Below, one piece after another: positions 1-4,635 of a DNA stretch of 4,635 bases. Position numbers and translations under genes: made by a program. Each line of letters opens with the position of its first letter. The stretch's first letter is position 1. The notes beneath the pieces are model-generated. The model was not told the DNA's origin, ran no database searches, and worked only from the letters and a program-made list of their open reading frames with translations. Source of the DNA: a virus (lineage: Duplodnaviria; Heunggongvirae; Uroviricota; Caudoviricetes); the IMG/VR virus record IMGVR_UViG_2675903254_000011; one strand, given 5' to 3'.

Positions 1-446
1 GTCACCCAGTTACCGTTACGCTGCAACTGAATCAGCAGGCGGACGGATGCCGGGTTACGGTCACCCTGTGAGGTGGTCTCCAACAGTGACTGCACCCCGA
101 AGGTGACCCGCAGGCGGTCAATGTTCGCGGATGTAATGGTGCGCGTTACCGGCTTTGCCTTCGTCACTTCCACGCCCAGTCCGGTTTCAGCTCCGGATGA
201 CTCAAAACCTTCCGGCGGTGTCTGCTCCTGCTCCCCGGCGCGCCAGACCGCTGTCACACCATGTATCACAGGATTACCGTCCGTGTCCGTCAGCGGGGTT
301 TTGTTCACCAGAATACTCTGCAGCCCCTTCACCGGACCTTCCACCGGTCCCTCACCGATGGCATCAATCACGCTCATCATCTGCGTGGACTTAAGATTGT
401 CCTTTGCCTCAACCGGCGTGTGCGCCTTGCCGCCACCTTTACCCAC
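1..446 (-). CDS. J: Tail tip / central tail fiber (host specificity) protein J, N-terminal part; 3' end lies beyond the left window edge
   Basis: My minus-strand translation from GTG at 446..444 reads (M)GKGGGKAHTPVEAKDNLKSTQMMSVIDAIGEGPVEGPVKGLQSILVNKTPLTDTDGNPVIHGVTAVWRAGEQEQTPPEGFESSGAETGLGVEVTKAKPVTRTITSANIDRLRVTFGVQSLLETTSQGDRNPASVRLLIQLQRNGNWVT with no stop to position 1. This closely resembles the lambda gpJ N-terminus as I recall it (MGKGSSKGHTPREAKDNLKSTQLLSVIDAISEGPIEGPV...RLRFTFGVQALVETTSKGDRNP). A Shine-Dalgarno-like AGGAGAGGGGGA lies at 451..462. It is absent from the ORF track because it has no stop inside the window. Confidence 0.85.
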   Translation of the reverse strand, partial: MGKGGGKAHTPVEAKDNLKSTQMMSVIDAIGEGPVEGPVKGLQSILVNKTPLTDTDGNPVIHGVTAVWRAGEQEQTPPEGFESSGAETGLGVEVTKAKPVTRTITSANIDRLRVTFGVQSLLETTSQGDRNPASVRLLIQLQRNGNWV

Positions 447-486
447 TCTGTCCCCCTCTCCTGTCTGATGTCTGAATCTGTTTATG

Positions 487-521
487 CCCCAAAAACGACA
501 GGCACCCCGGAGGGTGCCTGT
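487..521 (-). terminator. Intrinsic-terminator-like hairpin on the minus strand, ~40 nt upstream of the J start
   Basis: Perfect 10-bp stem (plus 498..507 acaggcaccc pairs with 512..521 gggtgcctgt) with a 4-nt loop. On the minus strand it is followed directly by CGTTTTTGGGG (plus 487..497). There is no U-tract on the plus-strand side, so it is oriented for minus-strand transcripts. Confidence 0.55.
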
Positions 522-554
522 GTCATGACGGAATAAAATTTCTGAATTTCTTCA

Positions 555-659
555 CATTTTCTGTACGCCCCCGTGGCAGATATCATTCCCGGGCGTTACA
601 GTTTTTTCGGGCCAATAAAAACAAAACCCCCTGTGGTTAATCTTCATTTTCTGTTCCCG
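555..659. repeat. Imperfect direct repeat units in the I-J spacer core
   Basis: Exact 10-mer cattttctgt at 555..564 and 646..655. CCCCC(T)GTGG at 568..576 and 627..636. TTCCCG at 586..591 and 654..659. Read directly from the sequence. Confidence 0.35.
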
Positions 660-690
660 CAGCCTTCGGTCACTGCGGGATTTTTTCGCT
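655..690 (+). terminator. Intrinsic-terminator-like hairpin on the plus strand, abutting the 3' end of gene I
   Basis: 8-bp GC-rich stem (655..662 tcccgcag pairs with 673..680 ctgcggga). The loop ccttcggtca contains a C-UUCG-G tetraloop-like motif. It is followed on the plus strand by TTTTTT (681..686) then CGCTTTT. On the minus strand the hairpin is followed by ACAGAAAATG, with no U-tract, so it is plus-oriented. Confidence 0.55.
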
Positions 691-691
691 T

Positions 692-1176
692 TTATGCCTG
701 CCGCCCGATAACCACCACCTTCCCGTCACCGCCTTCATCACGGGTACTGATGTCCTGGGAGATTCGCCGTGAGCCAACCAGCATTTCACCGTAAGGCACC
801 GGCATCGGGTTCCCCTGAGCAATCATGTTGTCCAGTGAGGAAAAATACGTGTTCTGTCTGCCGTTATCCGTTGCGCGGTAATCCGGTGTTTTTGCCTTCG
901 GGGCCAGCATCTGTGCCACACCACCCAGTATCATGCTGGCACCCAGTGAAAACAGCATCGTGGTGGCAGAAAAACCGCCGGCACTCAGCGCTGCACCCCA
1001 GGCTGCCATCGATGCTCCGGCCGTGAAGAAAGAGCCCACGATGGCTGCCGCCCCCAGCACAATCTGCAGTCCACCTTTTCCGGCCCCGGCCAGTCGCGGC
1101 AAAGTTGTAAATCCCCGTGAAGGCAGATACGTGCCAGTGGCGGTGACGCCAGGCTGAATGCGTTCGTCGTTGCCAT
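692..1176 (-). pseudogene. I: Tail assembly protein I, disrupted: N-terminal 24 codons in one frame, C-terminal domain in another, apparent internal deletion of ~187 nt
   Basis: The ATG at 1176..1174 (SD-like GGGAGAGG upstream) opens MATTNAFSLASPPLARICLHGDLQ, matching the recalled lambda gpI N-terminus (MAATHTLPLASPGMARICLYGDLQ...). After LQ the frame reads unrelated sequence to a stop at 985. A different minus frame (track ORF 692..1102, open from 1201) encodes LPRLAGAGKGGLQIVLGAAAIVGSFFTAGASMAAWGAA...NTYFSSLDNMIAQGN...GEMLVGSRRISQDISTRDEGGDGKVVVIGRQA, matching the recalled gpI C-terminal domain. ATG-to-stop is 485 nt here against 672 nt in lambda. Confidence 0.65.
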
Positions 1177-2526: not shown

Positions 2527-2867
2527 CAGTTCACCACCTGCTCTATCGTGCAACTGAAATCACTGTACCGGGCATTATCCGTGACACTCCACTCACGGCA
2601 CACAACCCTCACCGTCCGGTTATGTTTCGGCGGTCGCCACAAAAAGGCACGGTAACCACCATGCCACGATAAAAACTCTTCCAGCCAGCGCCTGGTTGAC
2701 TCATCCGTCACCCGGAACACCGCCTGAAACGTCTTCAGTTGAGGATTCAGCCCTGTGGGGCGGCGCTGTTCATAACCGTCACCAAACCGCACCCTCACCA
2801 CCGACGGCTTCTCACTCACCTGCATCCCTTCACGCGGGACCAGATGCAGCGTTTTTATCTCAGCCAC
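2526..2867 (-). CDS. M: Minor tail protein M
   Basis: 113-aa ORF: MAEIKTLHLVPREGMQVSEKPSVVRVRFGDGYEQRRPTGLN...FLWRPP...IEQVVN, resembling recalled lambda gpM (MKTFRWKVKPGMDVASVPSVRKVRFGDGY...FEQVVN, 109 aa). The start is GTG at 2867..2865, preceded by GGAGGA and overlapping the last H codons. The position matching the lambda ATG is ATA here. Confidence 0.82.
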   Translation of the reverse strand: MAEIKTLHLVPREGMQVSEKPSVVRVRFGDGYEQRRPTGLNPQLKTFQAVFRVTDESTRRWLEEFLSWHGGYRAFLWRPPKHNRTVRVVCREWSVTDNARYSDFSCTIEQVVN

Positions 2868-4635
2868 TCAGCATTCCTCCGTCACGTCGCATGGACAGCA
2901 TCACCGCCTGCACCCGCTGGTCAATCAGCTGCACAAGACTGCCTGCCGCCTCCGGCCCTATCTGGCCATTAGTCCCGTCATTCTGAATGGCGATATGGTA
3001 GACCGGGGAATACACCAGACCCGCACTGCCGTTCATACTGCCCACCGCGCGCACACCCAGCGAGCCATCCGCCGCCCGCGTCAGAGGCATAATGGCTTCA
3101 GGTCCGGCCTCCCCCATCAGCCCGGCCCCTTTTGCAAAGGCAAAGTACGTGGGCGTATCCACAATACTGTTGCTGTACGCACTCAGGTTTGCCGAGGTAT
3201 ACACGCCGCCTTTTGCATTGGCCACCGCCCCGCCCAGCCAGTCACCAATGCTGCCGAGAAATCCTCCCGCACCGGACATACCGTTTGCCGCCGTCTTAAT
3301 TCCGTTGACAATCGCGGCATTCATAAGAACTTTTGATATTTCCTGCAGCACTGATGAGGCCCAGCTGCGCCATTCCACTTTATTCCCGTTCAGCATCTCC
3401 GTGATGTTATTCACCATCCCTGAGATACCCTCCGTCGCAAGCTGTGCTGCCTGTGAGGCGTAATCGGACGCATTATCCACCCAGTTACTGAACCCCTCCT
3501 GCAGCCCTTTCTGCCAGTCCGCACGCTGCACATCCGATTCGGCATAAAAGGCTTCCTGCTCTTTCAGACGTTCACTCAGATACTGTGCATTCTGCGCCAG
3601 AGCCTGTCTGTAAAAATCCTCACCGATATCCCCGGTCTGATACTGAGACTGAAGGTCCGCATCCTTCTGGCGGAAGCTGTCGCGGATCTGCTGCAACTCC
3701 CGCATGCGTTCTCTGGCTCGTTCCCCCTGCCCGTACCCCAGCAGTTCAGCATCATTCGACGCACGCGCAGCCGCATTCTCATTCTTCAGTGTCTCTTCCC
3801 GGGATCGCAACTGTTCCCGGATTTTTTGCTGGTCAATCAGGGCCGCATTACGCAGCAGCTCCTGCTTCTGCATCTCCGTCAGGGTTTTCAGTTCGCCCTG
3901 CGCAGTCTGGTATTTCAGCTTCGCCAGCTCTGTATTCTGCCCCACCAGTGCCAGTTGCTCTTTCTGCTGCTTCAGCAGCCGGGAAAAACTGTCTTCCGCT
4001 TTTTCCGTCTCTGATTTTCCACCCCGGGATTTGGGTTTATTCGCCTCGTTATTGCGCCAGGCTTCCAGGGCATTACTGATATAACGTTGTCTCGCCTCCT
4101 GATACGGATCACCCACAAAACCGAGGTCATCCGCCGCATACCCCAGCCGGACACGCTCTTTTTCTTCCCCTTTCAGTCTGGACAGGGCCAGCTCACGCTC
4201 TGTTTTTGTCAGGGCACTCTGCTGTTTATCATCCAGAGTGGCCTGTGGCAGCCGTAACGGCACATTCACCAGTCCCTGCCGCTGCTGAAGCAGTTCATTA
4301 CCCAGCCCCAGCAGACGGTTGAATTCCGTATGCTGACCATTCATAACCAGCATGGACTGGTACACCTTATTCTGCTCTGCCGCCTGCTGACGAATTAACG
4401 CCACACGACGGTCTTCCAGCCCGGCAAGCACATCCTGAATGGACTGCGCTTTTTCCTGCATCTGTGCCAGACGGGACTGCTCAACGGCAAGCTGCTCTGT
4501 TGCCTGAGCAAGCCCTTCCGTTACGGTCTTCACCGAGGTCAGATGGTTTATCATGAATCCGTCACCGGTCGTCCAGCCCGGGTTCGCCAGAACATACTGA
4601 TATCCTGCGATTTTTTCCTGCAGGGATTTCACCCG
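2860..4635 (-). CDS. H: Tail tape measure protein H, C-terminal ~590 aa; 5' end lies beyond the right window edge
   Basis: A continuous minus-strand frame runs from the window edge to TGA at 2862..2860. It encodes a long Q/E/R/K/L-rich predicted helical region followed by a Gly/Ala-rich hydrophobic segment (GMSGAGGFLGSIGDWLGGAVANAKGG) and a C-terminal tail, as is typical of tape measure proteins. It sits immediately upstream of M-L-K-I-J as in lambda. The track ORF starts at an internal GTG (4632); the frame stays open to 4635. Confidence 0.88.
   Translation of the reverse strand, partial: RVKSLQEKIAGYQYVLANPGWTTGDGFMINHLTSVKTVTEGLAQATEQLAVEQSRLAQMQEKAQSIQDVLAGLEDRRVALIRQQAAEQNKVYQSMLVMNGQHTEFNRLLGLGNELLQQRQGLVNVPLRLPQATLDDKQQSALTKTERELALSRLKGEEKERVRLGYAADDLGFVGDPYQEARQRYISNALEAWRNNEANKPKSRGGKSETEKAEDSFSRLLKQQKEQLALVGQNTELAKLKYQTAQGELKTLTEMQKQELLRNAALIDQQKIREQLRSREETLKNENAAARASNDAELLGYGQGERARERMRELQQIRDSFRQKDADLQSQYQTGDIGEDFYRQALAQNAQYLSERLKEQEAFYAESDVQRADWQKGLQEGFSNWVDNASDYASQAAQLATEGISGMVNNITEMLNGNKVEWRSWASSVLQEISKVLMNAAIVNGIKTAANGMSGAGGFLGSIGDWLGGAVANAKGGVYTSANLSAYSNSIVDTPTYFAFAKGAGLMGEAGPEAIMPLTRAADGSLGVRAVGSMNGSAGLVYSPVYHIAIQNDGTNGQIGPEAAGSLVQLIDQRVQAVMLSMRRDGGMLSG

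Follow-up and report, generated by a model that had tools for sequence, protein, structure and literature searches.

Small RNAs (sRNAs) have already been reported twice from the spacer between the tail genes I and J of lambdoid prophages, as EcOnc22 to EcOnc24 in enterohaemorrhagic Escherichia coli (EHEC) strain Sakai, and as PasB in enteropathogenic E. coli (EPEC). The spacer described here belongs to a stretch of 4,635 nucleotides from the IMG/VR virus record IMGVR_UViG_2675903254_000011 (Caudoviricetes), called the window below, to which all positions given without an accession refer. The window spans the tail-gene region of a lambdoid, Shiga toxin (Stx)-type prophage of an EHEC-like E. coli, seen antisense. 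The right two thirds of its I-J spacer (approximately 530-690, plus strand, antisense to the tail operon) very probably constitute an sRNA gene homologous to PasB and EcOnc22/23/24. The element is real and of a known kind and, judged by its sequence, the copy in the window is a new, divergent, widespread and unannotated allele of the PasB/EcOnc22 family.

PasB, for pathogenicity-associated sRNA B, is an 83-nt sRNA encoded at 1466343 to 1466261 of NC_011601, in prophage PP6 of EPEC E2348/69 (Pearl Mizrahi et al. 2021, PMC8550237, Table S6). Its stability depends on Hfq, and 37 interactions were recorded for it by RIL-seq, in which interacting RNAs are ligated and then sequenced, including those with bfpB, bfpI, ler, perB, ftsZ and galE (PMC8550237). 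The gene sits between E2348C_1436 and E2348C_1437, which are the I and J homologues, and is antisense to both. Reverse-complemented, the northern probe used for PasB matches exactly the plus-strand terminator hairpin of the PhiR12_2-type spacer allele. PasB aligns to positions 608-687 of the window, and its RIL-seq chimeras end at the U-run homologous to that of the window. In the EPEC data, baseMean values were 482-1082 for pasB, compared to 5 for I and 15 for J. A read count so far above those of the flanking genes indicates that pasB has its own transcription in the lysogen.

In Sakai, EcOnc22 (prophage Sp15), EcOnc23 (Sp14) and EcOnc24 (Sp11) were detected as peaks of Hfq binding by cross-linking followed by cDNA analysis (CRAC), all on the plus strand, the tail genes being on the minus strand (Tree et al. 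2014, PMC4104026, Table S2). EcOnc22 gives a northern band of ~85 nt which is destabilised in a Δhfq context (PMC4104026), and a review lists EcOnc22-24 as "targets unknown" (PMC7873438, 2021). Taken directly on NC_002695.2, the coordinates of Table S2 place the peaks 22-84 nt from the J start, within the I-J spacers. This direct reading was rejected, as EcOnc22 would then cover the left hairpin of the spacer (window 470-531, plus strand), which makes no sense for an sRNA. Four sRNAs that can be anchored with Rfam models, AsxR, Esr41, EcOnc03 and AgvB1, have coordinates in NC_002695.2 that exceed those of Table S2 by 134-146 nt, which means that the table was built on an older version of the Sakai genome. 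An offset of +128 to +142 was applied to the EcOnc peaks. EcOnc22 then falls at ~2902842-2902916 (+), inside a plus-strand match to our covariance model of the family (2902836-2902930, see below), a match that covers the RNA body and runs into the plus-strand terminator. The shifted EcOnc23 and EcOnc24 likewise fall within plus-strand covariance matches in I-J spacers, antisense to the tail genes. Reuse of the EcOnc coordinates of Table S2 on the current Sakai record would misplace the peaks. Sakai contains 7 PasB-like genes, in Sp4, Sp9, Sp10, Sp11, Sp12, Sp14 and Sp15; all are in the I-J spacer on the opposite strand, except the Sp9 copy, which lies beside a truncated L gene. Separately, EcOnc06 (Sp17) was found to coincide with a match to STnc100 (RF02076).

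The limits of the spacer in the window were given by the J start codon GTG (446..444, minus strand), which aligns to the annotated start of Sakai ECs_2944, and by the I stop codon TAA (694..692, minus strand), which agrees with the Sp15 annotation after alignment. As both boundaries match those of Sp15, the spacer is 447-691, or 245 bp. In lambda it is 60 bp (15445-15504), and both lengths agree with an earlier note on this DNA, made from the sequence alone, which had pointed out the expansion. That note had also described an AT-rich core with direct repeats. The low GC content is indeed there, 41.4% for the core (522-654) compared to 58-60% for I and J, but the repeats do not hold up: the longest one in the spacer is 10 nt (555-564 and 645-654), a repeat at least as long was present in 107 of 2000 simulated Markov-1 spacers (5.4%), and it was not found in the other alleles upon comparison. 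The repeats are at chance level and allele-specific.

Homology of the window to the described sRNAs was measured with covariance models. Model R1, built from 23 alleles with the window-type alleles left out, matched the window once and at full length, at 593-686 (+), with 49.7 bits and an E value of 1.3×10−15, the next match having an E value of 0.55. Model R2, in which the stem was specified, matched 593-691 with 65 bits (E value 7×10−9). Identity at the RNA level is 73.5% between the window allele and PasB, 71% between the window allele and EcOnc22, and 75% between PasB and EcOnc22. The window allele and PasB have no exact word in common longer than 17 nt, and for the Sakai allele this limit is 15 nt. 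Since the survey of PasB distribution by Zhu, Shabalina and Storz (2026, bioRxiv 10.64898/2026.05.13.724894) used a BLAST word size of 28, we infer that neither of these alleles was probably counted. EcOnc22-24 are mentioned in neither of the PasB papers (PMC8550237; 10.64898/2026.05.13.724894), in which the equivalence of PasB and EcOnc22-24 seems not to be stated. The PasB family fits no Rfam 15 model. A scan of the window (E ≤1) returned a spurious sR32 snoRNA match inside J alone (16 bits, for a gathering score of 40), and the Sakai I-J spacers had no match at gathering thresholds, in runs that recovered AgvB, AsxR, Esr41 and STnc100 at their own loci. AgvB/AsxR, our initial hypothesis for the element, was rejected: the PR′ moron site is where those genes lie, and the window has no match to their models.

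The predicted sRNA, a window-type PasB/EcOnc22 homologue, extends over 593..687 on the plus strand according to the covariance models and the PasB alignment. From the position of the -10 hexamer, the start is predicted at about G593, 7 nt past it; the 5′ end of PasB, deduced from RNA sequencing (RNA-seq) coverage, aligns to position 608, and the 3′ end of the predicted sRNA is in the U-run 681-687. The RNA of the window would be 80-95 nt long. A conserved box GTTAATCTTCAT followed by a U-rich tract UUUUCUGU, which is single-stranded in the predicted fold, occupies 636..654 (+), the U-rich tract covering 641-654, just 5′ of the terminator. By analogy with the Hfq-binding module cited in Tree et al., this segment is a candidate Hfq-binding or seed-adjacent region. 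The predicted Rho-independent terminator (655..687, +) consists of the stem UCCCGCAG/CUGCGGGA (655-662/673-680), a variable loop and six U residues (681-686), and the plus-strand hairpin that had been noticed at the right end of the spacer is this one. Its folding energy is -14 kcal/mol (z = -2.7), and it ends 5 nt short of the I stop codon. The window copy has the whole terminator module of the family, that is the CCCGCAG/CTGCGGG stem, the variable loop, the U-run and the U-rich tract before it. Its location is also that of the family, between J (start 446, minus strand) and I (stop 692, minus strand), on the opposite strand and with the 3′ end by the I stop.

To define the family, a pattern search with the conserved upstream block was carried out, which retrieved at least 120 viral contigs; the family set drawn from viral contigs via this block comprises 79 loci, or 59 distinct sequences. 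Their common layout is an upstream block GAATAAAAnTTCTGAAnnTCTTCACATTT, a -35 hexamer, a 16-nt spacer, a -10 hexamer, a near-invariant GCGTTA start and a variable body, and then, on the 3′ side, a box (G/A)TTAATCTTC(A/G)T followed by the CCCGCAG/CTGCGGG-stem terminator with a variable loop and 5-8 U. The stem and a run of at least 5 U are kept in nearly all 79 loci, while loops differ and some stems are replaced by alternatives, such as CCCACAG/CTGTGGG, that preserve the hairpin. RNAalifold found no structure in the MAFFT alignment, a result of the 5′ arm being out of register among divergent alleles. The terminator stem was supplied explicitly and the sequences were realigned with the covariance model; in this structure-aware alignment 89% of the cells of the terminator stem are paired, with double changes in 2 pairs.

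A candidate promoter was assigned in the window by column-by-column homology to the PasB allele, with a -35 hexamer TTCTGT (559-564), a 16-nt spacer and a -10 hexamer TATCAT (581-586), all on the plus strand (559..586). Directly upstream of the -35 hexamer lies the AT-rich block GGAATAAAATTTCTGAATTTCTTCACATTT (530..558, +, defined from allele alignments), which is the best-conserved part of the cassette and precedes every unit of the tandem arrays described below. It resembles an UP element, a function that its sequence suggests, and it is intact in the window, where 532-559 fits the search pattern. The homologous promoter of the PasB allele is TTCACA-16-TATAAT, which the consensus scanner scores 11/12 in EPEC. 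Among the family loci, the promoter types were TTCTGT-16-TATCAT (window type, 22 loci, 7/12), TTCACA-16-TATAAT (PasB type, 19 loci, 11/12), TTCACA-16-AATAAT (15 loci, 10/12) and TCCGGC-16-AATAAT (EcOnc22 type, 9 loci, 6/12). No convincing promoter had been found by eye in the earlier note, and the scanner calls none in the window either. The weak candidate proposed in its stead, GTTACA at 595-600 with TAAAAA at 617-622, was rejected: it lies inside the conserved transcribed region and is not kept across the other alleles, the conserved site being 559-564/581-586.

Several phage records of the Stx1a, Stx2a and Stx2d kinds contain the spacer at 100% identity, and sequences resembling it were found in 781 of 5,426 complete E. 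coli genomes, several per genome and none annotated. The window-type body itself, at ≥95% identity, is present at 1,547 places in 464 of these genomes (8.6%), and is never annotated. The genomes concerned are O157:H7, O145, O103 and O111 strains, among them O157:H7 strain 9000 and Z852, and are mostly Shiga toxin-producing E. coli (STEC), for which the median copy number is 3 per genome. Among viral contigs, the window-type promoter and body make up the commonest type (22/79 loci). In a scan of one genome per species, the promoter block gave 2 matches, on contigs of 460 and 546 bp assigned to Asaia platycodi and Parendozoicomonas haliclonae (L142, L143), which are probably E. coli or phage DNA contamination and are uninformative on host range.

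In some phage contigs, the I-J spacer is occupied by an array of 2-4 PasB-family genes in tandem, with units ~225 nt apart (L052 318-1084; L095 12170-12936; L094 8169-8738; L019 9815-10094; L031 1603-1878; L055; L068). Each unit has the AT-rich upstream block, a -10 hexamer, a distinct body and its own terminator. The arrays are always between the I stop and the J start, and the distance from the J-proximal unit to J is a constant 145 nt. The window-type body resembles one unit in particular, the third in L052 and L095 and the second in L094.

Other cargo is found at the same place. In Sakai Sp10 (L139 13485-14335) and Sp4 (L140 42488-43338), the I-J spacer is ~850 bp long and contains sodC together with a PasB-like gene. 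Both are antisense to the tail genes, the sRNA gene being ~90 nt downstream of sodC on the same strand. This sodC moron, encoding a Cu/Zn superoxide dismutase, shares site and antisense orientation with the sRNA of the window; unlike the latter, it is protein-coding, ~530 bp long, and accompanied by a PasB-like gene. Its presence means that the site tolerates independently transcribed cargo, and the I-J junction is a recurrent site for antisense-oriented cargo. We would go further only tentatively, and at slightly less than even odds: the I-J junction of lambdoid STEC and EPEC prophages may be a modular sRNA locus of 1-4 tandem PasB-family units with the same upstream block and terminator and different bodies. 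In that case PasB, EcOnc22-24 and the window type would represent paralogous seed variants, shuffled between prophages by recombination, and the window type, with ~1,500 copies in 464 genomes, mostly STEC, a separate regulator with its own targets.

We consider it likely, with good confidence, that the I-J expansion is an autonomous gene for an Hfq-dependent RNA of the PasB/EcOnc22-24 family, inserted immediately past the I stop codon on the strand antisense to the tail operon. A sigma-70 promoter at 559-586, preceded by the AT-rich block, would fire rightwards in window coordinates, away from J, and an RNA of ~80-95 nt (593/608 to 687) would end at an intrinsic terminator of its own (655-687). 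Production of the sRNA would be independent in the lysogen, in which the late operon is silent. Hfq would be bound via the U-rich tract, the terminator hairpin and the U tail, and the variable 5′/central part would base-pair in trans with host and virulence mRNAs. The scheme builds on homology, anatomy and conservation, and on the expression, Hfq dependence and trans partners of the homologues, from which the window allele would be expected to be expressed and to bind Hfq, with the 5′ end predicted above. Because it differs from PasB and EcOnc22 in precisely the variable part, a different target set is probable. The suggestion of the earlier note, a moron-like sRNA insertion transcribed independently in the lysogen, has been borne out at homologous spacers, which yield a discrete Hfq-bound sRNA in two pathotypes. 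Extra genes that sit between conserved phage genes and are autonomous are known as morons (Juhala et al. 2000, cited in PMC4104026). The window element has the corresponding traits: no insert in lambda, a terminator, a promoter by homology, a core of low GC content, and sodC or multiple units at this site elsewhere.

Several observations weigh against this proposal. The promoter of the window is weak, with 2/6 matches to consensus in the -35 hexamer and 5/6 in the -10 (7/12 in total), and, as said, escapes the scanner. The U tail has 6 nt, compared to 7 in PasB and EcOnc22. The whole predicted RNA is no more stable than shuffled sequence (z = -0.4), the terminator alone being structured. The coverage-derived 5′ end of PasB lies downstream, by ~15 nt, of where the -10 hexamer would place the start, a gap that could reflect processing at the U-rich 5′ stretch or imprecision in one of the two estimates, such as that of coverage-based ends. 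For PasB, no target motif has been reported (PMC8550237). When a window-type copy was sought in Sakai for comparison with CRAC, none of the 7 family members was of this type. Finally, the offset applied to the EcOnc peaks is calibrated between 1.27 and 1.94 Mb, where it amounts to about +135 to +142 nt, and is bounded beyond by the total length difference (+128). This difference rests on a length of 5,498,450 bp, which we take to be that of the old Sakai chromosome.

Among the other readings, a mainly cis-acting antisense RNA is the one that best survives, and we hold it to be fairly unlikely. The RNA would pair with the late mRNA, leading to RNase III cleavage and to uncoupling of J from I, or its promoter would interfere with convergent transcription, so as to tune J and the tail tip or to delay tail synthesis. 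The I-J junction and the orientation antisense to the tail operon are common to all cases of the gene, over ~95 nt its RNA is the perfect complement of the late transcript, and the constant distance of 145 nt between the J-proximal unit and J suggests a positional constraint. Yet the RNA overlaps neither a coding sequence nor the J ribosome-binding site, which is over 130 nt distant; in lysogens that keep I and J almost silent, PasB is abundant, and its Hfq-dependent chimeras involve mRNAs from unlinked host and plasmid genes. Moreover, bodies diverge strongly between alleles and array units while the context is constant, as fits diversifying targets in trans. Roles in cis and in trans are not mutually exclusive.

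It is unlikely that the window holds a decayed relic of the PasB family, whose promoter has degenerated and whose cassette is essentially silent and functionless in a defective prophage. The drop from 11/12 in the PasB allele to 7/12 and the lack of a scanner call point that way, as do the shorter U tail, a frameshifting deletion of 193 bp in K/I of this prophage, and the position of the window allele outside the coverage of CRAC and RIL-seq. Against decay, the Sakai allele scores 6/12 and is likewise missed by the scanner, yet is expressed, with a northern band and CRAC peaks; a failed scanner call in the window is therefore not evidence of silence. The -10 hexamer of the window retains the critical A2 and T6, and there is no damage to the upstream block, GCGTTA start, conserved box or terminator. 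Nor would a decaying sequence be expected to be the commonest type among viral contigs, or to be kept at ≥95% identity at 1,547 places in 464 E. coli genomes.

The deletion itself was characterised by comparison with Sakai. The gene order across the window is H-M-L-K-I-J on the minus strand, with H at 2860-4632, M at 2526-2867 and L at 1828-2526, as taken from the list of open reading frames (ORFs). A segment of 193 bp which is present in Sakai Sp15, Sp12 and Sp10 is missing from the window at ~1096-1101, with 6 bp of microhomology at the junction. As 193 is not a multiple of three and the deletion falls in the K/I overlap, tail assembly gene I (692..1176, minus strand) is split into an N-terminal ORF of 63 codons, starting at ATG 1176, and a C-terminal frame of 136 codons (692-1102). 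K, read from ATG 1817 downwards, loses its normal stop and continues to 864. The listed phage records that match 1030-1170 do so in two pieces over ~337 bp, which means that they keep the 193-bp segment; among the records listed, this includes phages with a spacer identical to that of the window. From its sequence, this prophage copy is probably tail-defective, with the sRNA cassette intact.

The left part of the spacer bears on a further reading, in which the spacer is a two-sided insulated cassette that also yields a short minus-strand transcript ending at 487-521, or else a pure bidirectional insulator with no functional RNA. An intrinsic-terminator-like hairpin is present upstream of J, in the direction of the late operon (491..521, minus strand, from folding and a terminator scan). 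It has a perfect 10-bp stem (521..512/507..498) with 7 GC pairs and a UCCG loop, followed by CG-UUUUU (U5 at 495..491), and the minus-oriented hairpin of the earlier note thereby found confirmation. With -25.5 kcal/mol and z = -4.1, it is the top terminator call of the whole window, and a GC-rich stem-loop followed by a U-run makes it a predicted intrinsic terminator. The hairpin is present in every allele, with a compensatory change of C-G to U-A. U.G intermediates that pair on the minus strand only were found in 8 loci, compared to 2 loci for the other strand, and the U-run is confined to the minus strand.

The 60-bp spacer of lambda also folds into a GC-rich hairpin on the sense strand, followed by UUUUGUCAUUU, between the I stop and the J ribosome-binding site. 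It is similar to 491-521 of the window in position and orientation, and differs by its unrelated sequence (AAACCGCC-UGCG-GGCGGUUU) and its interrupted U tail; a simple scanner does not call it a terminator, and no record of a function was found for it. As lambda has an equivalent hairpin and no sRNA gene, we take 447-525, with its hairpin, J leader and Shine-Dalgarno sequence, to be the ancestral junction. By the same comparison, 526-691 is probably the insertion, and the left hairpin would belong to the ancestral I-J junction and not to the sRNA insert. In the lysogen this hairpin might stop RNA polymerase unmodified by Q before J, the Q-modified polymerase passing it in lytic growth; alternatively, it might stabilise the 3′ end of the upstream message. 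The J leader that follows contains two tandem copies of the heptamer TGTCTGA (462..475) and, on the minus strand, the J Shine-Dalgarno region GGAGAGGGGG (461..452), before a J translation that agrees with the lambda-like N-terminus VGKGGGKAHTP. In the allele alignment, the heptamer has 2 copies in the window, 3 in L028 and 4 in L034, so that the distance from the sense-strand hairpin to the J ribosome-binding site changes.

The insulator reading draws on this minus-strand terminator, the strongest in the window and conserved with compensatory changes, and on phage PPompW_699, where it is substituted by a hairpin with T-runs on both sides. We nevertheless regard it as highly improbable. The scanner found no minus-strand promoter in the spacer, nor is one conserved there; it is the other strand that carries every Hfq-CRAC peak and PasB itself; the EPEC tables searched list no intergenic RNA of sense orientation from the locus; and the lambda spacer has a comparable hairpin with no cassette, which makes it less likely that the left terminator is one wall of an insulated unit. 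The proposal of a transcript from either strand can be retained for the plus strand, where an RNA is documented for the homologues, and found no support for a short minus-strand RNA ending at 487-521. As for PPompW_699 (Enterobacteria phage, L013 325-666), its spacer is 342 bp long, and ~170 bp of unrelated sequence replace the J leader and hairpin. The hairpin in this stretch, AAACCCCGGTATC-AGCAG-ATACCGGGGTTTTCTTT, has A/T runs on both sides and is possibly a bidirectional terminator. The Sakai Sp12 spacer (L141 12393-12733), at 341 bp, is of similar size.

Lastly, a small protein encoded on the sense strand, by the 31-codon ORF 647..552 (MKINHRGFCFYWPEK..., SD-like GGGAAC upstream), is hardly credible: a "hypothetical protein" is annotated at this position in the PhiR12_4 record (PV340553), and "MKIN" and an "ELF"-like stretch recur in several alleles, but ACG or ACA takes the place of the start codon in at least 20 of the 79 loci and a further 13 lack the box, the ORF has anything between 15 and 50 codons, its frame is shifted by indels between alleles, and conservation of the sRNA sequence on the opposite strand accounts for the recurring residues. 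This mini-ORF was rejected on the loss of its start codon and its variable length; it is not conserved, in line with the earlier view that no protein-sized ORF fits.

The preferred reading, an autonomous Hfq-dependent sRNA gene, can now be set against the described systems. PasB and the window element have in common the locus, the strand, the upstream block, the promoter position, the conserved box and the terminator stem, and a 3′ end that abuts the I stop. They differ in the body, ...AACUCCUUCACA... with an anti-SD-like CUCCUU in PasB and ...AACCCCCUGUGG... in the window, a part that presumably contains the seed. They also differ in promoter strength, much lower in the window (7/12 compared to 11/12), and in copy number, PasB being reported as usually single-copy and common in non-EHEC strains, whereas the window type has a median of 3 per genome in STEC. 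EcOnc22/23/24 share locus, strand and architecture with the window, and the left 115 bp of the spacer are nearly identical. EcOnc22 and the window allele both have a weak consensus promoter, and both are on Stx or lambdoid prophages of O157. They differ in the body and the terminator loop (71% RNA identity), and EcOnc22 is backed by CRAC, northern blot and hfq dependence, while the window allele is known from sequence.

What is added here is that PasB and EcOnc22-24 form one gene family at one conserved site, and that a high-stringency BLAST survey would greatly understate both the diversity of this family and its abundance in STEC. For annotation, the 245-bp "empty" I-J spacer of Stx phages should be read as an sRNA gene next to an ancestral J-leader hairpin. 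A wider parallel is offered by AgvB and AsxR (RF02702, RF02703), the anti-sRNAs of lambdoid prophages found at the PR′ moron site (PMC4104026). These have no sequence or covariance similarity to the PasB family, are located near the stx and lysis genes, and are shorter (51-60 nt). They are nevertheless also short Hfq-dependent prophage sRNAs at a fixed moron position, often in multiple copies, and they follow the design seen in the PasB family, in which a 3′ Hfq/terminator module is conserved and a 5′ part, for targeting, varies. As the variable part is where targets would be specified, different prophages may by this design plug different regulators into the Hfq network of the host.

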